A stretch of 50,985 bases of DNA from a virus (lineage: Duplodnaviria; Heunggongvirae; Uroviricota; Caudoviricetes): IMG/VR virus record IMGVR_UViG_2721755720_000003. One strand, written 5' to 3'. The number at the start of each line of letters is the position of its first letter. Position 1 is the first letter of the stretch. A program made the position numbers and the translations under genes. The notes under the pieces were generated by a model. The model had not been told where the DNA came from. It worked only from the letters and a program-made list of their open reading frames with translations, and did not search any database. This document shows positions 1,239 through 39,037 of the stretch, in pieces.

Positions 1239-1814
1239 CTACGGCAGTGCTGGCCATTCAATATCCTGTGAAGTTGACGTATCAACACGGTTCAGCAATA
1301 CCCGATACTTTTTCCATGCTTCCAGCAACGAGATTTCTTCCTCCGTTGCAATTTCCAGATCTGCAGCATCCTGAAGCGGCGCAATATGCTCACTGGCTAC
1401 CTGCATCAGGTTGTTTTTTGTTTCTTCCGCCTCCCGGATCCGGAACAGTTTTTCTGCTTCCGTATCCTTCACCCAGGCTGTGCCGTTCCACTTCTGAAAC
1501 TCCCCTTCCGGCGATAACCAGGTAACATTTTCCGGTAACGGACCGAGTTCAGAAATAAATAACGCGTCGCCGGAAGCCACGTCATAAACCGTTTTACCCC
1601 GATGATCTTCAACGAGATGCCACGATGCCTCATCACTGTTGAAAACAGCCACGAAGCCTGCCGGAATATCTGGCGGTGCAATATCGGTACTGTTTGCTGG
1701 CAGACCTGTATGAGGCGGAATATATGCATCACCTTCACCAATAAATTCATTAGTTCCGGCCAGCAGATTATAAATTGTTATGGTCCGTGGTTGTTCACTC
1801 ATTCTGAATACCAT
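1239..1814 (-). CDS. tfaR: Tail fiber assembly protein Tfa
   Basis: 191 aa, near-identical to lambda Tfa as recalled ([12 protein letters not shown]...); ATG overlaps the stf stop (TAATG). Confidence 0.9.
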
Positions 1815-4800: not shown

Positions 4801-4885
4801 TACGTTTTGCTTTCAGCTGGATTGTGCAGTTCTGTACCGGTTTTCCTGTGCCGTCTTTCAGTACACCTGAAATCTTTACTGCCAT
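1814..4885 (-). CDS. stfR: Side tail fiber protein Stf, with a long Ala/Ser/Thr-rich repetitive central region
   Basis: N-terminus [26 protein letters not shown] matches lambda Stf; C-terminal His-rich GAHxH repeats; ATG at 4885 preferred over the GTG at 4891 in the ORF track. Confidence 0.9.
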
Positions 4886-4949
4886 ATTCACCCCACAAAA
4901 AAGCCCGCCTGAACCGGCGGGCTGTCATAACACTGTGTTACCTGGCTAA

Positions 4950-5549
4950 TCAGAATTTATAACCGACACCCACGATGAAACCGTCAGTGCGCCAGTCGCC
5001 ACTGCCGGAACCTTCATAAGCGACATCAATGGCCACGGACTCGGTCGGGTTAAACTGCACGCCAGCCCCCCACGCCAGAGACGTGTTGCTGTGGCGACCG
5101 TCATCACTTCCGGTCAGCACATCGTGCGTTTTCCCCTTATTGTCAGTTACGCGGAGATAATCCCCGGAGAAAGTCGACACACGGCTGTAAGCCACACCCG
5201 CCATCGCATACGCGCTGAACCATTCATTCACGCGTACAGACGGCCCCGCCATCACGCTGAACCAGCGGTTACGCACGGAATCTTCATACCAGCGGGTATC
5301 GCTGTAACGGGTCAGCTGGCGATTCTTGTCTCCTGCATAGCTGAACGACGTCACCATCCCCAGTGTGTCCGTAAACTCATAACGGTATTTCACGTTAATC
5401 CCGTTAAGATCATCGCTGCCGGGAACGTTCGTCGAGGCATGAAGATACCCCGCGCTCAGCGTGGACTGATGTTCAGATGCCCATGCAGGCGCACCGGATA
5501 CGGCCAGACAAATGGCTGCGGAAAAAATGGCGGCATAAAGTTTACGCAT
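4950..5549 (-). CDS. lom: Lom outer-membrane protein (Ail/Lom family beta-barrel)
   Basis: 199 aa with signal peptide and C-terminal GYKF; lambda lom position between J and stf; intact here. Confidence 0.9.
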   Translation of the reverse strand: MRKLYAAIFSAAICLAVSGAPAWASEHQSTLSAGYLHASTNVPGSDDLNGINVKYRYEFTDTLGMVTSFSYAGDKNRQLTRYSDTRWYEDSVRNRWFSVMAGPSVRVNEWFSAYAMAGVAYSRVSTFSGDYLRVTDNKGKTHDVLTGSDDGRHSNTSLAWGAGVQFNPTESVAIDVAYEGSGSGDWRTDGFIVGVGYKF

Positions 5550-5618
5550 AATTACCTCTCGCTTTTCTGCAATAAAAAAGGCACCATTTCTGGTGCCCTT
5601 ATATGGGTTATAACAATT

Positions 5619-8600
5619 TCAACGAATACTGATGCCGGAAGCGGCTTTTTTGGTCACAATCACCGTACAGTCGGTGATATTGCCTGCCCCCTGATTGCCT
5701 TTCTGGAAAATCTTAAACTCCAGAGTGACGCTACCACCACCACTAGGCATATCAATAACTGCACTGTAACTACCGGGAATGGCCCCTTTAGTTTCTCTGG
5801 ATGCGATTAATACGCCGTTTTTGCGAACTTCAAAACCATAACCCGTGTATCGCGTGCCTCCTGGGTTATTTCCGCTCCCCGGATCGTCATACGCTATACC
5901 GTTAAAAATAATGGGCGGAATAATAATCTGGCGGTCAAAGTTATGATCATCGCTGATGGTGACTGTAACCGTACCGTTTGGTGTTTCCGTGTTACCCCAC
6001 GTACCGACTTTTTTCGGGAAGGCTTTTGATACAGCTTTAACGAAATCCCCTCTGACCTGGGTCGCCTCCAGCATGCCCTTAATCGTACAGTTCTGGTTAA
6101 TCGTGACATTGTTGAGCGTTCCTGAGTTCGCATTCACACTACCACTGATATCCGCATTTTTAGCGGTCAGCTTTCCGTCTGATGTCAGGGAAAATACCGG
6201 AGGACTGCCACCGCTGGTAATGGTGGGGGCTGTCAGGCGCTTCAGGAACACGTCGTTCATGAATATCTGGTTGCCCTGCGCCACAAACATCGGCGTTTCA
6301 TTCCCGTTTGCCGGGTCAATAAACGCGATACGGTTAGCGGCAACCAGAAACTGGCTCAGCTTGCCTTCCTCCGTGTCCTCCATGCTGAGGCCAATACCCG
6401 CGACATAATGTTTGCCGTCTTTGGTCTGCTCAATTTTGACGCCCCACATGGCATTCCATTTATCGTTAGCGTCCTTCCACTCTTTCGAAAACTCATCCAG
6501 TCTGCTGGCGTTATCCTCCGTCAGATCAACTTTTTCCAGCAACTCCTTGCCGAGATGAGATTCGGTTATCTTGCCTTTGAAAAAATCCAGGTAACCTTCC
6601 GCATCATCGCTCGCCCGACCGACAGCCTCCACGAATGCCGATTTGCCAACGGTGTTCACACTGCGAACGTAAAAATAATAATCATGGCCCGGCCTGATAT
6701 TGATACTGGCAGCTATCCAGTACAGCGCCGTGCCAAGATAGCGGGCTGTGGTTTCAACCTGCCTGATATCAGCAATCCGTTTTTCCGAGAACCAGAACTC
6801 AAACTGTACCGTCGGGTCATAAACCGCAAGATGCGGCGTGGCGGTTATCTGAAAATAGCCCGGTGTCAGCTCAATCCGAGACGGCGCTGCCGGTGCGGCA
6901 ATCCGGAACGATACCGATGCCGGATCGCCCTGCTGTCCCCACGCATTTACCACCCGGACTGTCAGCCTGTAGTTCCCCAGCGCCAGTTGCGTGAAGCGGT
7001 ATGTGGTTTCCGTCGTCCGGGCCGTGCTGACCAGCCGCTCACTGCCGTCATCCGCGGCCACGGTCAGGCGAAGCATAAAGCTCACCCCCTTCACCACCTT
7101 CGGCGTATCCCAGCGCGCCAGCACCTGGTATTCCCCACTGTCTGCGGTGACTTCTGCGGTCAGGTGCTGCACCGCTGGCGGCGTGACACCATTCACCGTG
7201 CCGCTCTGGTCGCCGTCAAAGTGCGCCCCGTTATCCACGATAGCTTCTTTTTCCGGTACATGCTGCACGGCGGTGATGGCATACGTGCCGTCGTCGTTCT
7301 CACGGATACTCACGCAGCGGAACAGGCGCTGGCGCAGCGTCGGCAGCTTCAGCCCCCACACGCTGTATTCAGCAACGCCGTCAGGAACACGGCTCACTTT
7401 CACCTTCACGCCGTCGGTGACGGACTGAACCTCCACGCTGACCGGATTGCCACTTCCGTCAACCAGGCTTATCAGCGTGGTACCGGAGGATGGCAGCGTG
7501 ATTTCACGGTCGAGCGTCAGCGTCCGGGTCTGGCTGTTCACAGCCAGCACGCGCCCGCCGATGCTGATCCCCGCATAGTCATCATCGCAGATTTCAATAA
7601 CATCACCCGGCACATGGCGAAGCCCTTCTGCGCCCACGCTGAAGTCCACGGTCTGCGTTTCCAGCAGCTCCGTTTTAATCAGCCACAGCCCGGCGCGGTG
7701 TGCCTGCCCCCGGCTGGTACAGCCAAAGGCGTCCATCTTCGTGACGTTACGACCGTAACGGAGAATGGCCGGCGTGTCCTCCACAAGCTCTGTCGCCGTC
7801 TCCCAGCCGTTATCCGGGTCAATCCAGTTCACCTCAACGGCATTATGGCGGTCCTTCAGGGCGCTGAAGCTGTAGCGGAACGGCGCGCCATCATCCGGCA
7901 TCACCACATTACTGCGGTTATAGGTCCACACCTTATCCGACGGTCGGTCCTGCACAAACGTCAGCGTCTGCCCGTTCCATACCGGCATACAGCGCATCGC
8001 CGAGCAGAAATCACTGAGCACATCCCACGCCTTACGCTGTGTGGTCAGGTACGCATTACAGGTGATGCGCGGCTCCGTGCCGCCAAAGCCGTCCGGCACT
8101 GACTGGTCGCAGTACTGGCCGATGACATACAGCGCCCATTTATCCACATCCGCCGCACCAAGACGTTTCCCCATGCCGTAGCGCGGATGGGTCAGCATAT
8201 CCCACAGACACCAGGCCATGTTGTTGCTGTATGCCGGTTTAAACGTTCCGTCCCAGATACCGCTGTATTGCCGCGTCTGCGGGTTATAGTTCGACGGCAC
8301 CTGCAGAATACGCCCGCGCAGATGATAATTACGGCTCACCTGCTGGCTGCCGAACTGCTCCGAATCCACCTGCACGCCGACCAGTGCCGTGTTCGGGTAG
8401 CACTGTTTCACATCGATGATTTCGGTGTATGACGACCAGAGCGTTTTGTTCTGCAGCTGGTCTGTGGTGCTGTCCGGCGTCATCCTGCGCATCCGGATAT
8501 TGAACGGGCGCGGCGGCAGGTTACCCACCACCACCGATGCCAGATACTGTGAGGTGGTTTTGCCTTTAATGGTGATGTCTTTTTCCGTCACCCAGCCACC

Positions 8601-9032
8601 GTTACGCTGTATCTGAACCAGCAGGCGGACTTCCGACGGATTCCGGTCCCCCTTTGAGGTGGTTTCCACCAGTGCCTGCACACCGAAGGTAAAGCGCAGA
8701 CGGTCGATGTTTGCCGACGTGATGGTCCGGGTAATCGGCGTGTCGTACTTCACTTCCGTACCCAGCACCGTCTCGGAGCCGGAGGATTCAAATCCCTCCG
8801 GCGGTGTCTGCTCCTGCTCACCTGCCCGGAAAACCACCGTGACACCGGAGATATTGGTATTCCCCTCACTGTCCAGCACCGGCGTACTGTTCAGCAGCAC
8901 ACTTTTTAATCCGTCCACCGGACCTTCAACCGGCCCTTCACTGATGGCGTCTATCACGCTCAGCATCTGGGATGATTTCAGGTTGTCCTTCGCTTCGCGC
9001 GGGGTATGCCCCTTACTGCTGCCTTTACCCAT
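5619..9032 (-). CDS. J: Tail tip / host specificity protein J (central tail fiber)
   Basis: 1137 aa; N-terminal ~980 aa near-identical to lambda J as recalled; C-terminal ~150 aa diverged. Confidence 0.9.
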
Positions 9033-9092
9033 TCCTCACGCTCCATAAACGACAAAACCGCCCGGAGGCGGTTTCACATAAAACGTTTTTCA

Positions 9093-9740
9093 TCAGCGAC
9101 CAATCACCACAACCTGACCACCATCCCCTTCGTCTGCCGTGCTGATCTCCTGAGAGACCACCCGCGACCCCACGCGCATTTCACCGTACAGAACGGGCAG
9201 AACATTGCCCTGGGCAACCATGTTATCCAGTGACGAGAAATACGTGTTCTGTTTGCCGTTATCTGTACTGGCTGCCGTGGGCGTCCTGGCTTTCGGTGCC
9301 AACATCTGCGCCACACCGCCCAGGATCATACTGGCCCCTGCCGCATACATACCCGATACAGCCGTGGCCCCCAGCCAGCCCACAGGGTTCCACCATGCAA
9401 CCGCAATCAGCGCCGCCCCCAGCACTGCCTGAAAAATACCGCCACTTTTAGCACCCGCCGGACGCGGTACGATGTGGATCACGGCACCATTTTCCAGCGG
9501 CTCATTAAGACGGGCAGACAATTCAGTTTCACCTGCATCACGCCCGGCAATGCGTACCTGGTACCAGCCGTCGCTCAGTTTCTGACGAAATGCCGGGATC
9601 TGCATGGCCAGCGCCCGGATGGCTTCGGACCCCGTTTTCACTCGAAGGTCGATGCGGCGGCCAAATCGTTGTAAATCCCCGTAAAGGCAGATGCGTGCCA
9701 TGCCCGGTGACGCCAGAGGGAGTGTGTGCGTCGCTGCCAT
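9093..9740 (-). CDS. I: Tail assembly protein I
   Basis: 215 aa; N-terminal MAATHTLPLASPGMARICLYGDLQRFGRR matches lambda gpI; overlaps the 3' end of K. Confidence 0.85.
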   Translation of the reverse strand: MAATHTLPLASPGMARICLYGDLQRFGRRIDLRVKTGSEAIRALAMQIPAFRQKLSDGWYQVRIAGRDAGETELSARLNEPLENGAVIHIVPRPAGAKSGGIFQAVLGAALIAVAWWNPVGWLGATAVSGMYAAGASMILGGVAQMLAPKARTPTAASTDNGKQNTYFSSLDNMVAQGNVLPVLYGEMRVGSRVVSQEISTADEGDGGQVVVIGR

Positions 9741-10381
9741 TTGTCGGTGTACCTCTCTCGTTTGCTCAGTTGTTCAGGAATATGGTGCAGCAGCTCGCTG
9801 TCACCACAGTAAATGGCGGCATGATTCGGCACCGATGAACCAAAACAGCACAGCAGCACATCGCCCGGCTGCGCCGCTGACAACGGCACCTGATACAGCC
9901 CTGTGGCCTCCAGATTATCCAGATAGAGATTCTGACCGTGACGCCACCAGTTATCCCCGCGATGAAAATCCGGCATCTCAATTCCCGCCAGATGGTAAGC
10001 GTCCCGGAACAGCGTGTAACAGTCCGTCACCCCGTGCTCAAAGCGCCGCCCGGTGAGATGCGGCACACAGCGGAATTTATGAATCGCCCCCCGGCAGACC
10101 AGCCACCACGGCAAATCACTCTGTACCTGCAGCCGCCGGTCGGCCTCACTCAGCCAGGGCAGACCACCGGGGTGGCTGTGGACCAGCGCCACAATCTCTC
10201 CCTGCATTTCTGCACTCAGCCAGTCCTCCGGCGACATCCGGAAATACGCCTCCGGCTCACCGGAGATATTCACGCAGGGAAAATATCTTTCCTCCTCCGG
10301 CGTTCTCACCACGAAGCCGCACGACTCCGCTGGCGCACATCGCCGGGCGTGCGCCAGAATCGCTGATTCTGTCTCTGTCAT
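9638..10381 (-). CDS. K: Tail assembly protein K (JAB/MPN plus NlpC/P60-like domains)
   Basis: HSHPGGLPWLSEAD JAMM-like motif; Cys/His NlpC-P60-like C-terminus; start directly after the L stop. Confidence 0.8.
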   Translation of the reverse strand: MTETESAILAHARRCAPAESCGFVVRTPEEERYFPCVNISGEPEAYFRMSPEDWLSAEMQGEIVALVHSHPGGLPWLSEADRRLQVQSDLPWWLVCRGAIHKFRCVPHLTGRRFEHGVTDCYTLFRDAYHLAGIEMPDFHRGDNWWRHGQNLYLDNLEATGLYQVPLSAAQPGDVLLCCFGSSVPNHAAIYCGDSELLHHIPEQLSKRERYTDKWQRRTHSLWRHRAWHASAFTGIYNDLAAASTFE

Positions 10382-10386
10382 GGGAT

Positions 10387-11085
10387 TTACTGCGAAAGTT
10401 TGTTAATGGAAAGGAAGCTGCCAAAGTTGCCGACATTATTGCGAAACTTACAGCCACTCAGGCATTTGCTGCATTTATCCTTCGTGATATCGGACGTCGG
10501 CTGGTCATATTCATCCGCGACCGCCGGACCGCTATAACCGCACTCATCGCCGCGATAGGTCCAGGTGCAGGTGTTGGCCAGCATGATACGTCCCGGAAAA
10601 ACAGCGCCATCCGTTTCAGTCGGCGTGGACAGTACAAAAGAGGCACTGACCGCGCTCAGTTCGCTGCACTGCTCGATGCGCCAGCGGCTGATCACCTCCT
10701 GCTCCGGATCGGCTTCGCTGTTTCCGTTGACGAAGTTCACCGCATCCAGAAAGCGGGCGTAAACCTTACGCCGGACCACCGTTCCGCCGACCAGACTCTG
10801 CAGATCTTCCGCCATCCCGGTGATCATGCCGTGCAGGTTAGAGACCGTCAGTGTCGGACGGGCAGCACTGCCCTTGCCGTTCATCTCAAATCCACTCCCC
10901 TGAATGGGATAGGCCTGATACTGCCGACTCTGCCAGGTGACAGACTCACCTTTTTCGTTCTGCTCATTACAGAAAAAGTAGCGATCCCCGCCTACCTCGG
11001 TCAGGTCGATTTCCCAGAGCACCACGCTGGCCGACTGCTCCGCACGAATGCATTCATTCAGCGTTTCCTGTTGTATGTCCTGCAT
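10387..11085 (-). CDS. L: Minor tail protein L
   Basis: 232 aa with C-terminal Cys cluster; position between M and K. Confidence 0.85.
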   Translation of the reverse strand: MQDIQQETLNECIRAEQSASVVLWEIDLTEVGGDRYFFCNEQNEKGESVTWQSRQYQAYPIQGSGFEMNGKGSAARPTLTVSNLHGMITGMAEDLQSLVGGTVVRRKVYARFLDAVNFVNGNSEADPEQEVISRWRIEQCSELSAVSASFVLSTPTETDGAVFPGRIMLANTCTWTYRGDECGYSGPAVADEYDQPTSDITKDKCSKCLSGCKFRNNVGNFGSFLSINKLSQ

Positions 11086-28759: not shown

Positions 28760-30217
28760 TTAGGAGCGCCAAAAAAAACCTGAAAACAATATAATAACAG
28801 GATAAATTTCAAGGCGACCAAGAATCATAGCTATGCACATTAAACATTTTGCAATGTCATTAAGCACTCCGAATGACGATGCAGTAGCCCCAAAACCTAA
28901 TCCCATATTATTAATACATGCAGCCACTGTTGCAAATGATGTAAGAAAATCATATCCCATACCATTTAACACCAGTATAAAAAACACCGTGAAGAGAGTA
29001 TAAAGAAAAAAGAAACTCCATACAGACCTCATTACACGATCTGTAACTATCTTCCCTCCTACATTTACACTCAACAACGCTCTGGGATGAGAAAGCTGAT
29101 TTATCTCGTGTTTGCTTTGTTTGAAAAGTATAAGAAATCGAAGTGACTTAATTCCACCACAAGTTGAACCTATACATCCCCCAAAGAAACTTGACAACAG
29201 CAAAAACACTATCGTATGCGTGGGCCAACTTGCATAATCCTGCGTAGCTAAACCATTATCAGTGAGCATGGAGCTGGCAAGAAAAAACGAATGAATAAAA
29301 CTTCCATGCAAGTCATACATACCTATATGCCAGACCTGGAAAGAGGTAACAATGATCACCCCTAAGGCTATTAACAGAAAGAAACGAAGTTCAATATCTC
29401 TGATTAAAGGTTTTATCGTTTTCCTGCTAATAACAATATACCAAAGAGTGAAGTTGAAAGCCGATAGCAGGGAAAAAGAACCAGCCACCAGCTCAACCAA
29501 ATAGTTATTAAAATATCCGATACTCTCGCTATGAGTTGAGAAACCACCAAGCGAAACTGTGGAAATCCCGTGACAAATAGCATCAAACAAAGGCATTCCT
29601 GCAAGTCTATAACAGACAATACAAGCAATACCTAATAAAGAATAAGTTATCCACAGTGTCCGTGACGTATCGGCCAGGCGGGGAGTGAGTTTGTCATCCT
29701 TAAATGGCCCCGGCATTTCTGACTGATAAAGCTTTGCACCACCAATACCCAATAATGGCAATACAGCAACCGCCAGAACAATAACTCCTAAACCACCTAT
29801 AAAATTTAACTGTGACCGATAGTACAAATATGCCCGAGGTAATGAACTAACATCATCAATTACAGTTGCTCCTGTTGTTGTTATTCCAGAAACCCCTTCA
29901 AACAGAGCATCAATGAACGTTAAATTAAGTTCTGAGTCAATCCATAAAGGGAATGCACTAATAACAGAAAACAAAATCCAAAACATTACAATTATAATAA
30001 ACCCATCACGGGTACGTAATTGAATGCCAGATTTCTTAGTTGTATACCACGCTCCGCCACCAATGCAAAAAAATATAACGAAAGTTATAAAGAAAACGAA
30101 CAGGCTTTTTTCTTTATAAAACAATGCTACAACCATTGGTGGCAACATTGAAAGACTATAGAGCCAAACCAGGAACCCACACATATGAGTAACAACTCTT
30201 ACATGAGATGTATTCAT
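28760..30217 (-). CDS. trkG: TrkH/TrkG-family K+ uptake membrane protein
   Basis: 485 aa polytopic membrane protein recognised as Rac TrkG; AT-rich codon usage relative to neighbours. Confidence 0.9.
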   Translation of the reverse strand: MNTSHVRVVTHMCGFLVWLYSLSMLPPMVVALFYKEKSLFVFFITFVIFFCIGGGAWYTTKKSGIQLRTRDGFIIIVMFWILFSVISAFPLWIDSELNLTFIDALFEGVSGITTTGATVIDDVSSLPRAYLYYRSQLNFIGGLGVIVLAVAVLPLLGIGGAKLYQSEMPGPFKDDKLTPRLADTSRTLWITYSLLGIACIVCYRLAGMPLFDAICHGISTVSLGGFSTHSESIGYFNNYLVELVAGSFSLLSAFNFTLWYIVISRKTIKPLIRDIELRFFLLIALGVIIVTSFQVWHIGMYDLHGSFIHSFFLASSMLTDNGLATQDYASWPTHTIVFLLLSSFFGGCIGSTCGGIKSLRFLILFKQSKHEINQLSHPRALLSVNVGGKIVTDRVMRSVWSFFFLYTLFTVFFILVLNGMGYDFLTSFATVAACINNMGLGFGATASSFGVLNDIAKCLMCIAMILGRLEIYPVIILFSGFFWRS

Positions 30218-30354
30218 ATCTAAATATTCTTTCAATTATAACCACCTTGCTGCAATATTATGATTATACTGTATAAAATTTAACTCCTCTTAGATCTTAC
30301 TTCACTGTTCCTTATGAAACAATCATCAAAATGAATCATATTGTAGTTAAGATT

Positions 30355-30819
30355 TTACTTTAAACACTGCTCGGTTATGTATTGCTGAGCACCTTCAAGT
30401 TGGGCCTGCATCATTACCAGTCGTTCCCGGAGGGTGAAATAATCCCGTTCAGCGGTGTCTGCCAGTCGGGGGGAGGCTGCATTATCCACGCCGGAGGCGG
30501 TGGTGGCTTCACGCACTGACTGACAGACTGCTTTGATGTGCAACCGACGACGACCAGCGGCAACATCATCACGCAGAACATCATTTTCAGCTTTCGCATC
30601 AGCTAACTCCTTCGTGTATTTTGCATCGAGCGCAGCAACATCACGCTGACGCATCTGCATGTCAGTAATTGCCGCGTTCGCCAGCTTCAGTTCTCTGGCA
30701 TTTTTGTCGCGCTGTTCTTTGTAGGCGATGGCGTTATCACGGTAATGATTAACACCCCATGACAGGCAGACGACGATGCAGATAACCAGAGCGGAGATAA
30801 TCGCGGTTACTCTGTTCAT
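30355..30819 (-). CDS. rzpR: Rz i-spanin (inner-membrane spanin subunit)
   Basis: N-terminal TM segment and coiled-coil periplasmic domain; ATG overlaps the endolysin stop; Rz1 embedded. Confidence 0.85.
30414..30599 (-). CDS. rzoR: Rz1 o-spanin lipoprotein, embedded in the +1 frame of Rz
   Basis: 61 aa; lipobox VVVGC; Pro-rich PPPPP mature part. Confidence 0.8.
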
Positions 30820-31313
30820 TGCTGACCCCACAAACAGATTTCACGCTCAATCTCACGACGAGTCATGAGACCTTTCCATTGCTTACCGCCAGCATATGTC
30901 CAGCGACGTAGCTGATCACATGCGCCTTTGATATCGCCCTGGTTTATTTTGCGAAGAAGCGTCGATGTTCTGAAATTGCCAGCACCCACGTTGTAAACGA
31001 ATGAGTAAAGAGCGCCGCGCGTTGTTTCCGGTATATCGACTTTGATGTACGGGTTAATTTGTCTGGCGACCGTGGCAAGGTCTTTATTCAAGAGTGTTTT
31101 GCATTCTGCTTTGGTATACGTTTTACCGAGCATGATGTCTTTTCCTGTATGCCCGTGACATACAGTCCATACACCAACAATATCTTTGTATGGTATGTAG
31201 CTGACACCTTCCAGACCATCGTTACCACTTGGGCCAGTGATTAACACTGATGCTATAGCAATTGCTCCGCCACCAATAGCAGCAGCAACGACTTTTCGTA
31301 ATGATGGAGGCAT
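30816..31313 (-). CDS. R: SAR endolysin (phage-21-type lysozyme with N-terminal signal-anchor-release domain)
   Basis: 165 aa; Gly/Ala-rich N-terminal hydrophobic segment [19 protein letters not shown]4-lysozyme-like catalytic region. Confidence 0.9.
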
Positions 31314-31528
31314 TATTCACCTCTCGCAGCCTTGCGCTTATCTTCTTTAATCTTGAAATAAAGGTTTGTCAGGTACGTCAGCAGGCCAAATACCAGACTA
31401 CCCAGCACACCGATTGCAGCCCACTGTGACGGAGTTACTCTATCGAGCAACTGTAAAAACCAGTAGCCAGCACTGCCTGCGGAGGTGCCGTAGGCAATGC
31501 CTGTTGAAATTTTGTCCATGGATTTCAT
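31313..31528 (-). CDS. S: Pinholin (S21-like class II holin) with dual-start motif MKSMDK
   Basis: 71 aa from the ATG at 31528 (GGAGGTGA RBS); two TM segments; stop overlaps the R start. Confidence 0.85.
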
Positions 31529-31636: not shown

Positions 31637-31654
31637 AGCTCGCCGTAGCGAGCT
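31637..31654 (-). terminator. Candidate intrinsic terminator hairpin between lipoprotein gene B and the holin
   Basis: AGCTCGC-CGTA-GCGAGCT stem-loop flanked by A/T runs. Confidence 0.4.
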
Positions 31655-31779: not shown

Positions 31780-32175
31780 CTAACCTCGCATGTCAAAGCC
31801 AGATTTCTGAAAATCTCTGTAGACTTCCGGATTGTTGAAGGCCGGAAATTTGGCTTTATGAGCTGCGGACTTTATCGCTTCGCAATAGGCTTTATCACCG
31901 TTACTGGTAGATATTTTTAACGCCGTGCCATCCTGAGAGAATTCCATATGCAACCTGCATTTTTTCCCTTTCCAGTTATGCGGCTCATCAAGTTTGGCAT
32001 TAATTGCAGCTCTGATTCCCCGCGCTTGCGCCCCCCATTCATCCTGATCATCCCAGCGTCCTGAACTGCAACTACCTGTAGCAGTAGTTTTGTGGCAATC
32101 TGAAGGGTGTAAAGGTGTGCATCCCGCAACAAAACCGACCCAAAAAGTCAACATAACGATTTTCTTTAATCCCAC
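31780..32175 (-). CDS. Outer-membrane lipoprotein with a TolA-domain-III-like C-terminal domain (paralog B)
   Basis: Signal peptide with lipobox VAGC; C-terminal …KKCRLHMEFSQDG…YCEAI…FPAFNNPEVYRDFQ… aligns with paralog A and with the TolA C-terminus. Confidence 0.6.
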   Translation of the reverse strand: MGLKKIVMLTFWVGFVAGCTPLHPSDCHKTTATGSCSSGRWDDQDEWGAQARGIRAAINAKLDEPHNWKGKKCRLHMEFSQDGTALKISTSNGDKAYCEAIKSAAHKAKFPAFNNPEVYRDFQKSGFDMRG

Positions 32176-32325
32176 TTCTTGCTCCTCAATCCATTAAAAT
32201 CTCAGCAATAGTAGTTGTTACGTCCGCCACTGGCTCAGAGCTGACTATCCGCTAAATTTAGCTCAGTGCCGTAGCTGTGTCAGAACAAACCTAAGCCGAA
32301 ACCGTTTATTACAAAACAATAAATA

Positions 32326-32754
32326 TCAGGGTTTAAAATCCAGCACCCCATTTTGAAATACTTTATATACTTCCGGCGAAGGGGGGGCAGGTATATCAGC
32401 ATTCTTTATCGCATTCATCGCTTCACGACATAAATCGAGGTCTCCACTTTCTCTTTTAACCTCCAGTAGAAGGCCATTCGGGGCCATATGCATTCTCAGT
32501 GTACACTCTTTTCCTGAATACTTACTCGCATCCCCGAACTGTTTTTCGATGGCGCTCTTGATTTGATGGGCATACAGACGGATATCCTCACTAACATCAG
32601 AAGTACGTTCAGATGAACTCACATACTGTGTCTCTATTGCTTTATCGGAGTAATATGATGTACGGTCATGATAATTTGTCGATACAGCATCAGTGCACCC
32701 GATAATAATCCCACTAATAATCAACGTAAGAATTGATGCGCTACGAAAACCCAT
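32326..32754 (-). CDS. Outer-membrane lipoprotein with a TolA-domain-III-like C-terminal domain (paralog A)
   Basis: Lipobox IIGC; C-terminal YAHQIKSAIEKQFGDASKYSGKECTLRMHMAPNGLLLEVK…PEVYKVFQNGVLDFKP closely resembles the E. coli TolA C-terminus as recalled. Confidence 0.75.
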   Translation of the reverse strand: MGFRSASILTLIISGIIIGCTDAVSTNYHDRTSYYSDKAIETQYVSSSERTSDVSEDIRLYAHQIKSAIEKQFGDASKYSGKECTLRMHMAPNGLLLEVKRESGDLDLCREAMNAIKNADIPAPPSPEVYKVFQNGVLDFKP

Positions 32755-33340
32755 TTTTCCTCACATATGTCATATAGTAAAGGATTATATATACCGTTGT
32801 TTTGGACGCTCAAACAGCGAATCAGATCAAATAAAACGCACATTTGTTAACATTTACACAAAGTCTGCGTGGGATATTCTGAAAGAATATCCATAATGTG
32901 GAGAGAATCTATTGAAGTGCATGGTGCCGGGTGCCTCTCGGTGAACAAAATGTTCGTGATACCTGTCGGCGACAGAAAAGGTTAATGGTATCACCCCACC
33001 GCACAGGGGGATTCACCATGCAGGAGTTTTCTTAGCAAACTCACTGCGCGCCCGGCAACTCCCAACCACATAAAATGCGGAGTTTGTGGCATTTATGCAT
33101 ATAACTCGCAGGAATTATCTTAAAAAACTGATGTCGATCCGGATTAAAAAGAAGCAGGTCATCATCAGATGACTGGAAAAAAGGAAAACAAAAAATACTC
33201 ATCATACAGTTTTGATTGCAGGGATGAGCCTGCTATGCACAATATGCAGAATATAAGCAAGATAAAAATATGCAGGCATATTATTTCGGATTTTGTTATT
33301 AACACAACCTTTTTAATAATCATTTGGCATACAATAAACC

Positions 33341-33371
33341 AGCCCAAAAAGAACCGCCTAAACAGGCGGTT
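33341..33371 (-). terminator. Intrinsic terminator (candidate tR'-type) on the - strand
   Basis: CCGCCT-GTTT-AGGCGG hairpin followed by TTCTTTTTGGG on the - strand. Confidence 0.5.
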
Positions 33372-33690
33372 GGTCAATACAAAGGATGCTTCGTCTTTAT
33401 TATAGTAATCTGAGGCGTCGGGTGTCTTGTATCAGACAACATATTGTCCCGCTAAACAGCGAATTACAAACCACCCTGCAATGATCTCTCATCTCATTTT
33501 ATATGAGTTGACGACATCAGGATAACGCATCATCAGCCCCTGCCAAGAAATATCAAAACTCCCGCCAGCAATGTGTTATCACAATATTGTAAAAAAACAC
33601 AGCACCGAAACTATAACTGGTCTCTGTTATAATTTGGAGCAGAAAGACCAGTTGCCCAACTAGCAGCATTCTCCCCTGCTTTCCTGACGT

Positions 33691-33798: not shown

Positions 33799-34341
33799 TC
33801 AAGCCATTTTCTCAGCAAATGATTCACGCATGGGAATATATAGGGCATACTCAGCAACAGCTAACCAATTAGCAATCCGTTTTTCGCATGTGCTAAAACA
33901 CCACTCTGGGTGTGCATCATTTAGCAATTCAGCCATTTTGCGCTTAGTCATCCCCCGCCCTTCATAGCGTTGCCGGAGAATGCAAATCAATCCTGGATGC
34001 TCTGCCAGTACCTCACTTATGACTCGATCAATACATAACGCCTCTGCATCAGTACAATGCGCCAGCCAGCTCTTTTGCTTGCCGTTGATCATCTCTCGCA
34101 AAAACGCTTCCAGCTCAGCTTTCTCTATTCCCGCTTTTTTCATTCTGCGCAGGGCTTCATTAATGGCTGTTTTCGTCAGTTTTTTGGATGCCAACAACTG
34201 ATTGAACATATTCCCTGACCTGCCACCGCCAATATACGACCAGCGCCCCCACATACGTAGTTTTCCCTGAATCCAGACACTTTCCAGCGTGGTGAGGCGA
34301 AGGTGTTCTCCGCTTTTTCCTGTATTCGTTGGGTAAATCAT
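33799..34341 (-). CDS. Late-gene antiterminator Q-like protein
   Basis: 180 aa; WGxW-type motif (LRMWGRWSY); sits immediately upstream of the terminator-rich leader and lysis genes. Confidence 0.6.
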   Translation of the reverse strand: MIYPTNTGKSGEHLRLTTLESVWIQGKLRMWGRWSYIGGGRSGNMFNQLLASKKLTKTAINEALRRMKKAGIEKAELEAFLREMINGKQKSWLAHCTDAEALCIDRVISEVLAEHPGLICILRQRYEGRGMTKRKMAELLNDAHPEWCFSTCEKRIANWLAVAEYALYIPMRESFAEKMA

Positions 34342-35643: not shown

Positions 35644-37908
35644 TTATACGGAAACTGGCACACGAGCAGGCAATGGATAGTGAGCCCAGTTATTAGCATT
35701 TAAAGCTCTTACGCCATCAGCATAAACTTGTGTGTTTCCATCTAATGATTTTAAAGTTACTACAATAGTTACAGGTAAAGGCTCCATTAAGGCCGGTTCA
35801 TTCGCTCTCAACGTTGTTTTAGCCTGAAGAGCCCAGTTACCCGAAGTAATTCCTTTATTAAATGCCTTGCGATGAATTTTTACTGGTGACCACTTTCCAC
35901 CATGCTCAATTTGAGCTCTCTCATATCCAGATTGACCGTTTTCTCCTTCCATAGGCACTTTTCCTTTTATAGTATTATTCTCAATTAAGCCAAAACTTAG
36001 CTCTACGTTCGCGCGAACATATTCACTGCCGGCATTAGGATTCAGTGGTGGTGCATATGCAGCAGTAATTACAATCTCACCTTTAAATTTTCCATTTTGA
36101 ATAAGTGCCGATGGTATGGGATAGTTTTCCTTTCTCCACCTCATCCCAGGAACCAAGAATGTTTGGAAAATCAGAGTAAACCTATCATCACTATCATATA
36201 AGGTCTCAATAACTTCATTAGGAATTCCCGCTCCCAAATAGCGTCTTTCACTTGGCGAGTAATCAGGAGAAGATAATTGAGCGGAATGAATTAATAATGC
36301 TTTAATCAATGATGGTGAAACATTAAAGTCTGAATTAGTGGCTATTCTCTGCCATGTATGCGCAGCTAAACTTGCCACAATTGGAGCAGCAAAACTAGTA
36401 CCAAAATTAGAGCAAAGCCTATTATCTGGCCCTACGACCTTTAAACTGCTTGCTCCTACATTCCAAGGTCTATGAACCCCACCGCCAGCATGGATTATAT
36501 CTGGCTTTGGAGTAAATACAGGCCCAGGGCCACGACGAGTATATGGTGTCGGTGTTCCAATTTCACTTAAAGCATCATTAGCTTCCATATGAGAAACTGA
36601 ACCAACTGTTAGTGCTCGGACTGACTCTCCAGGAGAGGAAATTAAATCAGCACCTCCAAGCGGTTCAGGATTTGGCCATGTACGTATAGGTTCATCTACA
36701 TAATTACCTGCAGCAACTACAAACAAAATACCAAATTTATCGCTGAGCCGATCTAACTCCATCGCAAAATCACTAAACGTCTGCTCATTACATGGTCCGC
36801 CTCCCAAAGACAAATTCCAGACTTTTATATCTGGTCTTTTATTTACAGCATCTGCTAGCCTCAGAATTAAATCTGATATATAAGATCCATTTTCATCTAA
36901 GGCACAAACATCATGGATTTTAGATTTTGTATCAGGAATCCATGGATGATTGTCATTTAAAAAATGAGCGCCTGATATCAATGAAGACACCATAGTCCCA
37001 TGTTCATAACTCGTATCAGGAGGAATTACGTATGTTTCCCTACTCACTACCCAAGGAGTAATTGTTGCCGCGATGGGGCTTACCCCAGTGTCAAATACAG
37101 CAACAATGGGTAATTCTTCTGATGGTACGGGAAAGCTATTTGTTTCAATGCCAACAGAATCACTTACACTAACCGGGAATGCTGAATATTTTGGTTCTGG
37201 AATTAACGTTCTTATACCCGGGTAATTAATGAGAATGTCTAATATATATCTATCATTTGGGGATAAATCCATTATCCTTAATAAGGGAAGACCACATTTT
37301 TGTCTAATCTCATCATATTTAACTCCGTGTTGTTCTAATATAGAAATAACGTTTTCATAGTTGTTGTAAGTTGCATCTTCACCTGTGTACTCAAATAGTC
37401 GTACAAGGATGTTTGATGATTCAAACAAACCATCAGTGCCTCCTGGAACCTTCCTATTCTCATCCCAAGGTTCAATGCGCTCAATCGCGCTTAGATTAGC
37501 CAAAATCGCTTTAATATTCCGATGTAAAATAACTGACTCTAATACGTCAAAACAGCCGGCATGAGCAGCAACCAACATTTCATCTATTTTGGCATGACCG
37601 GCATTTTGCAATCCAGCCTCTTGAGCAATTTTGTTCGGCCTATGCGTTTTGGCTATTCCCTGGTCTCTTAATTTGAAAACCAAAGTACCCAAGCTTCCAG
37701 GGTACTCTGAAAGTTTGGATTCTAAATAATGTTTACTGGTTGTTAAATTTCTTACTAGCCCTTGTCTATATTCGGCTGTTACATCAACCAATACCTTTGC
37801 CCCACCGCCAGCGTTTACTATTGCACCCAAGTCACTACTGGAAAAAGGGATTCTTAACATTGGGTTTGTAACTTTTGCGTTACTAAACTGTGTACCCCTT
37901 CTGCTCAT
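35644..37908 (-). CDS. Subtilisin-like S8 serine peptidase (IetS-like)
   Basis: 754 aa; catalytic triad motifs VAVFDTGV (Asp), HGTMVSS (His), GTSFAAPIVAS (Ser); overlaps the upstream ATPase gene. Confidence 0.85.
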   Translation of the reverse strand: MSRRGTQFSNAKVTNPMLRIPFSSSDLGAIVNAGGGAKVLVDVTAEYRQGLVRNLTTSKHYLESKLSEYPGSLGTLVFKLRDQGIAKTHRPNKIAQEAGLQNAGHAKIDEMLVAAHAGCFDVLESVILHRNIKAILANLSAIERIEPWDENRKVPGGTDGLFESSNILVRLFEYTGEDATYNNYENVISILEQHGVKYDEIRQKCGLPLLRIMDLSPNDRYILDILINYPGIRTLIPEPKYSAFPVSVSDSVGIETNSFPVPSEELPIVAVFDTGVSPIAATITPWVVSRETYVIPPDTSYEHGTMVSSLISGAHFLNDNHPWIPDTKSKIHDVCALDENGSYISDLILRLADAVNKRPDIKVWNLSLGGGPCNEQTFSDFAMELDRLSDKFGILFVVAAGNYVDEPIRTWPNPEPLGGADLISSPGESVRALTVGSVSHMEANDALSEIGTPTPYTRRGPGPVFTPKPDIIHAGGGVHRPWNVGASSLKVVGPDNRLCSNFGTSFAAPIVASLAAHTWQRIATNSDFNVSPSLIKALLIHSAQLSSPDYSPSERRYLGAGIPNEVIETLYDSDDRFTLIFQTFLVPGMRWRKENYPIPSALIQNGKFKGEIVITAAYAPPLNPNAGSEYVRANVELSFGLIENNTIKGKVPMEGENGQSGYERAQIEHGGKWSPVKIHRKAFNKGITSGNWALQAKTTLRANEPALMEPLPVTIVVTLKSLDGNTQVYADGVRALNANNWAHYPLPARVPVSV

Positions 37909-39037
37909 ATGCTCCTGACTCCTTCAGAATGTTTGAAATTACTCTTGATGTAAGTTTGTACAAATTAGCAAGAACTCTGATAGAAAATAATTTTTTATCT
38001 TTAGAACGTAACCAACGAATTTCATCTTCGTAAGTGCTTAAATTTACACCTTCCATAAGCGATTGAGCAAGATACAAACGCCTATACAATTTATGGTGAT
38101 TTATCACACTTGCACCTTCAATAACTGCATCCCTACGTGCATCCAAGCTCACCTGTTCAATTATTGCTCCGGATAATCCTTCCGATTTTCTTGATAAATC
38201 ACTTAAATCTAGATCGCTACATATCATATTCTTTAAACGATTTTTCCAAATTAACTCTCTCTGATGTATGTCAGGCAGAGGCATTGGAATTCTGAAGCTA
38301 AATCGCCTCCAGATTGCAGGATCCAGAAGTTGCTCATGGTTAGTTGAGGCAATAATTACCGTATCCTCTGATGCCGCATCCATATTCTGCAATAGTGAAA
38401 TGACAACTCGCTGAAGCTCACCTATATCTCTCTCATTACCTCTTGCTCCAGCTAAAGCATCAAATTCGTCTAAAAAAAGCACTGATGGCCTCTGCATTAC
38501 ATAATCGAAAACCTGTCTAAGATTTTTGCTGGTTTGTCCCAATAAACTACTAATCAAAGTATCGCAACGCACTGTAAGAAGTGGAAAATCTAAGCGGGTA
38601 GCGATGTACTTAGATAACATAGTCTTACCTGTTCCTGGCTTTCCATACACGAGCATACGACTCGGCAATGCTGCATCAGCTTTAACAAACTCATCATAAC
38701 GTTGAACATTAGTGATAAACTCTTCAACACGGGTACTGATTGCTGCAGGCAGAAAAATCTCTGAACTGTCTAATTTAGGATAACTGACATCAACAGTGTT
38801 GAGTCGACTATCAATATCTACCGGTAATGAGCCCAGAGATATCCCACCTCCAGCCCTTTGAGCTCCTGCCAACGCCTGGGGAGCTCTAAGCAACCTTTCT
38901 CTTATCATTCTGGCTTGCTTGACCTCCCCTTTTTGTTCGAGCTTATCTGCCAGCAACCCAGCATAATTACTAGCCATCGAAGCATTTGCCTTTGTTGCAC
39001 CTTCAATGATTTTTAACACTTCTGATAAATAATCCAT
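37883..39037 (-). CDS. AAA+ ATPase (classic clade; IetA-like)
   Basis: 384 aa; Walker A GKPGTGKT, Walker B VLFLDEFD, sensor-1 ASTNH, Arg finger region PAIWRRF; GGGAG RBS. Confidence 0.85.
   Translation of the reverse strand: MDYLSEVLKIIEGATKANASMASNYAGLLADKLEQKGEVKQARMIRERLLRAPQALAGAQRAGGGISLGSLPVDIDSRLNTVDVSYPKLDSSEIFLPAAISTRVEEFITNVQRYDEFVKADAALPSRMLVYGKPGTGKTMLSKYIATRLDFPLLTVRCDTLISSLLGQTSKNLRQVFDYVMQRPSVLFLDEFDALAGARGNERDIGELQRVVISLLQNMDAASEDTVIIASTNHEQLLDPAIWRRFSFRIPMPLPDIHQRELIWKNRLKNMICSDLDLSDLSRKSEGLSGAIIEQVSLDARRDAVIEGASVINHHKLYRRLYLAQSLMEGVNLSTYEDEIRWLRSKDKKLFSIRVLANLYKLTSRVISNILKESGAYEQKGYTV

Follow-up and report, generated by a model that had tools for sequence, protein, structure and literature searches.

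Cor and Llp, two small outer-membrane lipoproteins, attach to the host receptor FhuA and plug it, and they block phages and colicins that share one import route. A different kind of block is known from the Tol system, where exclusion mediated by g3p, like overproduction of TolA domain III (TolAIII) or of g3p-N1 in the periplasm, is accompanied by leakiness of the outer membrane, colicin tolerance and resistance to Ff phages. Infection by Ff phages is blocked by g3p-N1 in the periplasm, and E. coli exporting soluble TolAIII to the periplasm reportedly became tolerant to group A colicins in work of Levengood-Freyermuth, Click and Webster in J Bacteriol in 1993. Cor (phages phi80, N15 and the mEp phages) and Llp (T5) are described as outer-membrane lipoproteins of superinfection exclusion (10.64898/2026.03.26.714494). 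A further precedent is that of the FimU-like pilins encoded by Pseudomonas prophages, in which the lysogen is guarded by a prophage-borne version of a component of the host envelope (PMC12952977).

The surfaces by which TolA is bound have been mapped in some detail. Asp418 and Lys420 belong to the edge strand beta3, at which g3p, ColN and TolB are bound, and the substitutions D418P and K420P both lead to a tol phenotype (PMC4339652). The site for colicin A consists of TolA residues 375-380 together with Lys368, Lys379 and Lys396 (PMC3365938). Here, we describe two prophage genes, A and B, whose products combine a predicted lipid anchor with this same domain.

The locus between the Q-like gene and the holin

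The cassette of A and B is carried by a full-length Rac-type E. coli prophage, and the whole stretch of DNA that was analysed, the window, comprises 50,985 nucleotides. Both genes lie on the minus strand between a Q-like gene and the gene of a P21-type holin. The first-pass annotation had assigned them to the moron slot between Q and the holin, and this position is borne out, with a Q-like DUF1133 protein as the one neighbour and the P21-type holin as the other. The upstream flank, a Q-like late-gene regulator (33799-34341, minus strand; Pfam DUF1133, 2.5e-107), has a borderline match to Phage_antitermQ (26.1 bits, cutoff 26), and its gene is preceded by YbcO and DUF1367 genes, as is the case in lambdoid nin regions. 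On the minus strand there follow a pR'-like sigma-70 promoter match (33399-33428; AAGACA-18-TATAAT, 10/12 in a consensus scan, and as such a pattern match only) and, downstream of the Q-like gene, a tR'-like intrinsic terminator (33352-33371; AACCGCC-TGTT-TAGGCGGTT, then a T run).

Just upstream of gene A, the minus strand carries an STnc100-family sRNA-like element (32865-33051; Rfam RF02076), which matches the model over its full length with 79.8 bits (gathering score 47) and an E value of 1.8e-16. Between this element and A lies a sigma-70 promoter-like site (32784-32813, minus strand; TTGAGC-18-TATAAT, consensus scan 10/12). Since the site is a consensus match only and is missing from the region before the A-like gene in strain JNE141411, we take it as weak evidence for a promoter.

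Gene A (32326-32754, minus strand) starts with ATG and encodes 142 aa. It is separated from gene B (31780-32175, minus strand; GTG start, 131 aa) by a spacer (32176-32325, minus strand) that carries the Shine-Dalgarno sequence for B. A terminator-like hairpin had been proposed after each of the two genes, and this holds for B, which is followed by an intrinsic terminator with a 7-bp GC-rich stem (31637-31654, minus strand; AGCUCGC-UACG-GCGAGCU-UUUUU), but not for A: the spacer folds no better than its shuffles (z = -0.25) and a U-tract is absent, which rules out a terminator at this place. With the only terminator after B, A and B look like one two-gene unit. The lysis genes lie beyond it, namely the P21-type holin (31313-31528, minus strand; Pfam Phage_holin_2_1), then the lysozyme (30816-31313; Pfam Phage_lysozyme), Rz (30355-30831; Pfam Phage_lysis) and Rz1 (30414-30599; Pfam Rz1). 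A scan of the slot between the Q-like gene and the holin found no tRNAs. The unit has the trait of a moron in that it is inserted between conserved phage modules and is variably present among related phages. The cassette is also found in phage mEp460_ev081, there with a different Q gene, and in the stx slot of another lambdoid prophage an A-like gene occurs by itself.

Two predicted lipoproteins and their TolAIII relatives

That the 142-aa and 131-aa products start with lipoprotein signals (lipoboxes IIGC and VAGC, no Asp at +2) was confirmed along with their reading frames, both having Thr at +2. Each has a positive n-region, a hydrophobic core and a lipobox of the pattern [LVI][ASTVI][GAS]C. 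In A, the signal peptide covers residues 1-19 (MGFRSASILTLIISGIIIGC, MGFR...IIGC, then T), with the lipid-bearing Cys20 encoded at 32695-32697, as checked in the sequence; in B, it covers residues 1-18 (MGLKKIVMLTFWVGFVAGC, MGLKK...VAGC, then T), with Cys19 encoded at 32119-32121. The GTG start of B is preceded at a distance of 7 nt by a GAGGAG Shine-Dalgarno sequence, and in plasmid homologues the corresponding codon is ATG. By these signals, A and B are predicted outer-membrane lipoproteins. Linkers with a pLDDT below 50, predicted to be disordered, follow in both proteins and extend in A to about residue 49.

The C-terminal domains belong to the TolA C-terminal family, as the first-pass annotation had held; the TolA sequence used there agrees with the PDB sequence. 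Profile searches place both genes above the curated gathering cutoff of 25 bits for Pfam PF06519: the domain of A (residues 49-142, 32329-32610, minus strand; Pfam match over residues 49-140) scores 82.6 bits (2.4e-23) and that of B (about residue 40 to 131, 31783-32058, minus strand) 54.6 bits (1.3e-14). A matches solved chains of E. coli TolAIII at about 5e-28 in phmmer and is about 59% identical to TolA 334-421, whereas B is about 32% identical to E. coli TolAIII and 30% identical to A, such that B is, in its sequence, far less TolA-like than A. Superposition of the AlphaFold2 models agrees with the assignment, an alpha/beta fold in which a sheet of three strands packs on helices. In Foldseek, the best matches of both were E. 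coli TolAIII: A (pLDDT above 90) aligns with 2x9a_B at an rmsd of 0.6 Å (TM 0.96), and B (pLDDT about 90) with 3qdp at 1.1 Å (TM 0.89, E 9e-9). The pair Cys363-Cys388 is invariant across A, B, the plasmid homologues and TolA.

A and B are not full-length TolA. They comprise only 142 and 131 aa, their N-termini are lipoprotein signals, and they lie outside a tolQRA-tolB-pal operon, between the Q-like gene and the holin. The NCBIfam models match them only with their C-terminal part (positions 293-386 of 387 for NF007065 and 265-362 of 362 for TIGR02794). Both fall below the NF007065 equivalog cutoff of 213 (A 107.8 bits, B 53.7 bits); for TIGR02794 (cutoff 59.45), B remains below with 47.2, and the passing score of A, 75.6, comes from a partial match only.

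With respect to the mapped binding sites, A retains the Cys363/Cys388 pair, Lys379, Lys396 and a beta3 strand, LDFKP, that is identical to that of TolA. In B, the beta3 strand reads FDMRG, with the Asp invariant and Lys replaced by Arg. The colicin A strand is LLEVKR in A, where Lys379 and Lys396 are retained and His replaces Lys368, and ALKIST in B, where it has diverged and is not conserved. A looks like a near-full mimic of TolA, and B, which retains only the beta3 face, probably has a different or narrower set of ligands. The B clade has in addition a conserved module between lipid anchor and fold, consisting of Cys27/Cys36 and a SSGRWDDQDEWG motif.

The genes are widespread. The A-B cassette is present at >=99% identity in 773 of the 5426 complete E. 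coli genomes (14%). On conjugative plasmids of the I complex (MPF_I), B-type genes follow the relaxase gene at a distance of 68 nt; they are also found on pO157 and as solo genes on the chromosomes of about 30 Enterobacterales species, all of which rules out a family specific to prophages; the first-pass view of prophage lipoproteins was thus right for this prophage and too narrow for the family. The solo chromosomal copies stand in housekeeping or metabolic surroundings in Enterobacter, Serratia, Citrobacter, Klebsiella and other genera, and these surroundings differ in nearly every species. A genome scan with a B-only alignment gave 33 loci at the species level, all solo except the Shigella Rac locus (L013), so that a tandem of A and B is not the general rule. 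In Klebsiella michiganensis, an adjacency of A-like and B-like genes was inferred solely from consecutive accession numbers. Loci of the Klebsiella oxytoca group have a thioredoxin-like gene, a gene for an unrelated lipoprotein and a lipoprotein-TolAIII gene upstream of cdiBA-like genes. A third lipoprotein type occurs on about 750 plasmids, mostly of Klebsiella, including MPF_I plasmids and others. At least 50 of the 72 short representatives obtained by clustering at 50% identity share the architecture of lipobox plus TolAIII, by which the lipoprotein-TolAIII proteins are a large and diverse family. Both genes are under purifying selection, with a dN/dS of 0.05-0.14 for B (about 0.07 across genera) and of 0.27-0.40 for A.

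The family has so far gone by misleading names. PHROGs lists it as phrog_5772, of unknown function, and the models of PADLOC-DB 2.0 gave zero matches for A, B and the Klebsiella plasmid type. Full-text literature yielded no paper on the function of prophage TolA-III lipoproteins, in keeping with the first-pass annotation, which was aware of no characterised one; the sole relevant mention found was in a Cronobacter genome paper of 2010, where a prophage 'TolA' gene was given a guessed role in phage uptake. The 'TolA' EDL933_2012 of a ciprofloxacin transcriptome of EHEC was considered as a family member and rejected, as it is in fact a tail-fibre gene. PGAP labels A of strain ECCHD184 as 'tolA, incomplete, missing N-terminus', that is, as a pseudogene.

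Possible decoys of the Tol import route and other readings

The reading that we favour, though only tentatively, is that A and B are outer-membrane decoys that capture TolA-binding ligands, where we infer their localisation, expression in the lysogen, binding and protective effect. The lipid anchor would position the TolAIII fold between the outer membrane and the peptidoglycan, the compartment in which the translocation domains of colicins and the g3p-N1 of filamentous phages first emerge. The mimics could bind the short segments that normally dock onto TolA, the 'TolA boxes', by beta-strand augmentation, and a ligand held on a domain without a link to the TolQR motor could not be pulled inward. 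Such a capture would leave the cell tolerant of Tol-dependent bacteriocins and of filamentous phages that depend on a pilus.

Such a role is supported by the fold and the lipoprotein signals, by the conservation of binding-site residues, by purifying selection and by the occurrence of the genes on mobile elements. That the carriers are mobile elements whose hosts meet TolA-dependent invaders suggests the same, as do the moron-like behaviour, the solitary A-like gene in the stx slot and the unit's own terminator. I pili are the receptor of the filamentous phage IF1, and the solved structure 2x9a has the g3p of IF1 bound to TolAIII. It is conceivable, though we consider it doubtful, that lipid-anchored TolAIII represents a widespread, unrecognised form of immunity by receptor-domain decoys on the prophages, conjugative plasmids and genomic islets of Enterobacterales. 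Under this extension, a TolA tip without a motor would intercept Tol-dependent bacteriocins and g3p ahead of the energised TolA; the tandem would cover two classes of ligands, A with both TolA faces and B with beta3 only, and the relaxase-adjacent copies on I-type plasmids would shield piliated donors from filamentous phages that use the I pilus. If true, this could account for part of the high natural colicin insensitivity of E. coli isolates.

Several observations run against the decoys. The site before A is only a consensus match that is not conserved at a related locus, A and B match no PADLOC model, and the solo chromosomal copies in ordinary metabolic surroundings show a family that is not confined to mobile elements. 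Furthermore, the strong conservation of B across genera (dN/dS about 0.07) at only about 32% identity to TolAIII fits less well with a decoy, since such constraint would be better explained by a conserved host partner than by an arms race with diverse toxins. A decoy would also tend to disturb Tol-Pal, because the beta3 face for g3p and ColN is at the same time the one that binds TolB (PMC4339652). The main rival, in our estimate an unlikely one, is that A and B modulate Tol-Pal: their ligand at the outer membrane would be the TolA box at the N-terminus of TolB, and possibly also Pal or CpoB. In competition with TolA, they would retain TolB on Pal, with outer membrane and peptidoglycan less tightly linked. 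The beta3 residues required for TolB binding are kept in A and in B, and a conserved host ligand, for instance the TolB N-terminus, suits the cross-genus constraint on B. Overproduction of periplasmic TolAIII causes leakiness and hypervesiculation. The location of the unit between the Q-like gene, with its pR'- and tR'-like signals, and the holin implies that Q-modified late transcription would read through A and B; the proteins would then act mainly on late read-through and could aid outer-membrane disruption, vesiculation or virion release beside the spanin, yet lambdoid lysis in this phage already has its full set of holin, endolysin and spanin. On I-complex plasmids, where the gene is positioned as if co-transcribed with the relaxase gene, a modulator could ease assembly of the transfer apparatus, and the chromosomal copies would regulate envelope dynamics. 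However, a constitutive antagonist of Tol-Pal should be costly, which is difficult to reconcile with a cassette in 14% of the complete E. coli genomes and with solo copies kept on the chromosomes of about 30 species.

The same solo B-type genes in housekeeping surroundings across genera could also reflect a host envelope factor that has nothing to do with invaders, and whose TolAIII/TonB-C fold contacts another periplasmic or inner-membrane partner, for example PBP1B-CpoB, or a protein of the outer membrane that has a TolA-box-like strand; on mobile elements it would then be cargo of general fitness value. TolA itself is a known interaction hub that touches CpoB and PBP1B (PMC7391070), and the Cys27/Cys36 and SSGRWDDQDEWG module of the B clade suggests an additional, specific interaction. 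We nevertheless consider such a factor quite improbable, given that the surroundings differ in almost every species, as is typical of single genes that move horizontally, and that repeated carriage by prophages and plasmids argues for a benefit related to conflict. Least credible by far is that the genes are debris, i.e., non-functional 3' fragments of tolA that were gained through illegitimate recombination and owe their annotation to homology only. The 'incomplete' label that PGAP gives to A in ECCHD184 and the restriction of the NCBIfam TolA equivalog matches to the C-terminal 90-100 positions might be read in this way, but both reading frames are intact, each is preceded by a Shine-Dalgarno sequence and encodes a tether as well as a lipoprotein signal that is new and well formed, the domains fold confidently in the models, dN/dS is far below 1, and the same lipobox-plus-TolAIII architecture recurs in at least 50 of the 72 short representatives. 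The selection and architecture data effectively refute this reading.

A and B beside described systems

Irrespective of whether A and B act as decoys or on the envelope, the current labels 'tolA', 'colicin import membrane protein' and 'pseudogene' are misleading. With the cassette in about one seventh of the sequenced E. coli genomes and in well over a thousand sequenced plasmids, a protective function would bear on antimicrobials based on colicins or phages, and further on the hosts used for phage display and on strategies that target plasmids by 'male-specific' phages. Should TolB-Pal be their target instead, phages and plasmids would have in them a natural means of tuning how the outer membrane is tethered.

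The closest relative is the host's own protein. A and B share the fold and the disulfide pair with domain III of E. coli TolA (PDB 1tol, 1s62, 2x9a, 3qdp, 3qdr; PF06519), A retaining the beta3 LDFKP and most of the colicin A box and B the equivalent of Asp418. In contrast to TolA, they have neither domain I, the transmembrane helix coupled to TolQR, nor domain II, the long helical spacer; they are predicted to be anchored by lipid to the opposite membrane, and they cannot transmit a force derived from the proton motive force.

To Cor and Llp, they are analogous at most, as small outer-membrane lipoproteins encoded by phages. Searches of Pfam (E up to 1) and PHROGs gave only TolA/TonB_2 and phrog_5772, and no homology to Cor or Llp. 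Whereas Cor and Llp plug FhuA, A and B resemble a component of the host import machinery itself, and would therefore have the invader, rather than the receptor, as their target. The FimU-like pilins are similar in concept only, as prophage copies of a host component that phages require; they are of another protein family, belong to the type IV pilus and work by incorporation into it and not as soluble or anchored decoys.

Exclusion by g3p, like the overproduction of TolAIII or g3p-N1, targets the binding of a TolA box to TolAIII (PMC4339652), the interaction that the proposed decoys would exploit in the same compartment. There, however, TolA is saturated by the phage's own ligand, or the domain is a laboratory construct, whereas A and B are natural, lipid-anchored copies of the receptor domain on unrelated mobile elements. 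If they are decoys, mimicry of a periplasmic import hub would join the known means of protection by mobile elements, which block a receptor at the surface.

Two predicted lipoproteins carrying a TolA domain III

The two genes considered here, A and B, both lie on the minus strand of the window, at 32326-32754 (A, ATG start, 142 aa) and 31780-32175 (B, GTG start, 131 aa), exactly where the first-pass annotation had placed them. The GTG of B has a GAGGAG Shine-Dalgarno sequence 7 nt upstream and aligns with the ATG start of plasmid homologues. By inspection of the sequence, each protein has a charged n-region, a hydrophobic core, a lipobox, whose cysteine codon is present in the window DNA, and Thr at position +2, in agreement with the earlier proposal of lipoprotein signal peptides without Asp at this position. 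The N-terminus reads MGFRSASILTLIISGIIIGC in A, continuing with TD after the lipobox cysteine, and MGLKKIVMLTFWVGFVAGC in B, continuing with TP. Since the residue following the lipid cysteine predicts lipoprotein sorting (the +2 rule), both are predicted to reside in the outer membrane. PGAP names A 'tolA', and in E. coli ECCHD184 marks it as an incomplete tolA pseudogene; there it also places the start of B seven codons late, such that the charged n-region is lost.

The C-terminal parts of both proteins are homologous to TolA domain III (TolAIII), far beyond chance and as the first-pass annotation had proposed. In Pfam, the TolA C-terminal model PF06519 gives E values of 2.4e-23 for A and 1.3e-14 for B, with scores well clear of the gathering threshold in each case, and a phmmer search with A against all PDB sequences returned E. 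coli TolAIII entries only (~1e-27). The latter alignment also bears out the TolA sequence that the first-pass annotation had given. A is 59% identical to TolA 334-421, and B is 30% identical to A. AlphaFold2 models have a pLDDT of ~90 or more over the C-terminal 90 residues and of <50 in the signal peptide and linker. With Foldseek, A superposes on the TolAIII chain bound to IF1 g3p (2x9a_B; rmsd 0.6 Å, TM 0.96) and B on free TolAIII (3qdp; rmsd 1.1 Å, TM 0.89), and TonB C-domains appear among the distant matches only.

A and B are not orthologues of TolA: the NCBIfam TolA equivalog models match over their last 90-100 positions only (NF007065: 107.8 bits for A and 53.7 bits for B, at a cutoff of 213). 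Furthermore, both proteins lack TolA domains I and II, and their genes lie outside a tol-pal operon. While their domain is a structural member of the TolA_C family, the combination of lipid anchor, tether and TolAIII is a new architecture.

A probable bicistronic unit in a Rac-type prophage

The window holds a full-length Rac-type lambdoid prophage, and ECCHD184 carries the identical A-B cassette between intR-xisR-recET-kilR-sieB and trkG-ompN. In the window, too, trkG (28760-30235) belongs to the prophage, an arrangement shared with K-12 Rac. Upstream of A lies a gene for a DUF1133 protein with a borderline Pfam match to Phage_antitermQ, followed by pattern matches to a pR'-like promoter and a tR'-like terminator. 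Between this terminator and A, on the same strand as A, is a full-length match to the STnc100 sRNA family (32865-33051, minus; Rfam, 79.8 bits, gathering score 47), which could be a late-leader RNA or a piece of the 5′ region of an A-B transcript.

A clean intrinsic terminator follows B (31654-31637, minus), and beyond it come genes for a P21-type holin, a lysozyme, Rz and Rz1. The terminator-like hairpin proposed earlier after each gene exists for B only: the A-B spacer contains no terminator (fold z = -0.25 versus shuffles, no U-tract), and A-B is therefore best read as a single bicistronic unit. As the unit lies in the path of the late operon, transcription through it is expected upon induction. 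A putative promoter upstream of A (TTGAGC-18-TATAAT, 32813-32784, minus), which could drive expression in the lysogen, is a consensus match only and is not conserved before an A-like gene found elsewhere.

The lysozyme (30816-31313) has a hydrophobic N-terminus and adjoins the holin, which suggests a SAR-endolysin/pinholin lysis system. The record of phage mEp460_ev081 mislabels the 71-aa holin as 'Phage tail fiber protein'. The same prophage also encodes the IetA/IetS defence pair (35644-39037, minus), both near full length by PADLOC: the AAA ATPase IetA (37883-39037, 8.9e-143) and the subtilase IetS (35644-37908, 8.7e-302).

A family on prophages, plasmids and chromosomes

Of 5426 complete E. 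coli genomes, 773 carry the 1.2-kb cassette at ≥99% identity; it is also found in one sequenced phage, mEp460_ev081. The A+B tandem was seen only in this phage and in the E. coli/Shigella Rac-type prophage; a possible second tandem in K. michiganensis is indicated by consecutive accession numbers only. Other E. coli prophages encode A-like proteins (65-74% identity). In JNE141411, an A-like gene stands alone in the stx slot of Stx phages, in the order Q, DNA methylase, tRNA-Ile, tRNA-Arg, A-like gene, SASA/NanS-p-like esterase; homology to the window begins at the ORF and amounts to ~90% in the domain and ~65-70% in the signal and linker.

About 600 plasmids of E. coli and Shigella carry B-type genes (~88% protein identity), in every case 68 nt downstream of a MOBP relaxase gene; the carriers are MPF_I conjugative plasmids of the I-complex (IncI-gamma/K1, IncK2/Z), and in pO157 the gene lies in a relaxase remnant. 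A third type, a 145-aa protein with the lipobox ITAC, is found on several hundred mostly Klebsiella plasmids, where its gene adjoins a thioredoxin-like gene. On chromosomes, B-type proteins (70-89% identity) are encoded by solo genes in ~30 species of genera including Enterobacter, Citrobacter, Serratia, Klebsiella, Raoultella, Leclercia, Lelliottia, Kluyvera, Pantoea and Rouxiella, with neighbours that differ almost everywhere. An exhaustive profile search (E 1e-3 or better) gave 639 representatives of 50% identity clusters; among the best 150 of these, 72 are 115-175 aa long, and at least 50 of the 72 have a recognisable lipobox. Thus, lipoprotein-TolAIII proteins are a large family and not a prophage oddity: their description as prophage lipoproteins was true of their carriage by prophages and too narrow in scope.

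Some of these surroundings deserve mention. In Serratia marcescens, the solo B-type gene is flanked by nrdDG on one side and a GmrSD-plus-HEPN gene pair on the other, the pair resembling a small defence islet; in the Enterobacter cloacae complex, its two neighbours are a glutathione-peroxidase gene and a RidA gene. Three Klebsiella oxytoca-group contigs (~1300-10500) carry a module of a Thioredoxin_2 gene (in one of the contigs, a GGDEF-domain gene instead), an unrelated 134-aa lipoprotein gene and a lipoprotein-TolAIII gene, directly upstream of a ShlB/CdiB-type transporter and then a large CdiA-like TPS/DUF637 exoprotein.

Binding surfaces and possible function

In TolAIII, g3p-N1, colicin N and TolB all dock on the edge strand β3 (Ala415-Lys420), where the Asp418 and Lys420 backbone is critical and the substitutions D418P and K420P cause a tol phenotype (PMC4339652). 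Colicin A binds the opposite strand, 375-LLDIKP-380, together with Lys368, Lys379 and Lys396 (PMC3365938). In A, β3 reads LDFKP exactly as in TolA, and the colicin A face reads LLEVKR; Lys379 and Lys396 are retained, and His takes the place of Lys368. With most of both sites retained, A looks able to bind everything that TolA binds. In B, β3 (FDMRG) keeps the Asp and a basic residue, and the colicin A face reads ALKIST, with Glu and His at the two lysine positions; judged by these residues, B looks specialised to the β3 face or to a different ligand. In the segment that joins the lipid anchor to the fold (residues 20-39, window 32059-32118, where AlphaFold2 confidence is low), the B clade furthermore conserves an extra pair of cysteines, Cys27 and Cys36, and the acidic Trp motif SSGRWDDQDEWG. 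This motif may loosely resemble the TolB-box epitopes of colicins (DGSGW...W).

The best-supported reading, which we put forward tentatively, is that A and B are motor-less decoys of the TolA tip, held by a tether beneath the outer membrane. There they would intercept group A bacteriocins and filamentous phages by their TolA-box ligands, ahead of any contact with energised TolA. A precedent is that periplasmic TolAIII is reported to confer colicin tolerance. The link of B-type genes to I-type conjugation genes is suggestive in favour of such decoys: I pili are the receptor for phage IF1, and it is TolAIII bound to the IF1 g3p that A matches best in structure. Yet β3 is also the face on which TolB docks, and A and B could instead primarily titrate TolB and loosen the tethering of the outer membrane, which in a phage version would happen at late times. 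We consider this rather unlikely and still rate it the main rival, because B is very strongly conserved across genera, which speaks for a host ligand that is itself conserved. A host envelope role unrelated to invaders is improbable. That the genes are debris is least credible of all, being contradicted by the architecture and by selection, with dN/dS values of 0.05-0.14 for B versus its plasmid and chromosomal homologues and of 0.27-0.40 for A versus the JNE141411 gene. A share of the probability is assigned to none of these four readings. The decoy idea is plausible, and it is cheap to test.

The first-pass annotation was aware of no characterised function, and our literature search likewise found no experimental study of lipoprotein-TolAIII proteins. 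A Cronobacter genome paper of 2010 recorded a prophage 'TolA' and speculated on a role in phage uptake. In PHROGs the family is entered as phrog_5772 with its function given as unknown, PGAP uses the name 'TolA C-terminal domain-containing protein', and no PADLOC model matched A or B. If A and B are decoys, the functionally closest known proteins are the Cor/Llp outer-membrane lipoproteins, which act by plugging the FhuA receptor and have no sequence relationship to A and B. Also close in function would be g3p-mediated exclusion and the prophage-encoded copies of host pilus components.
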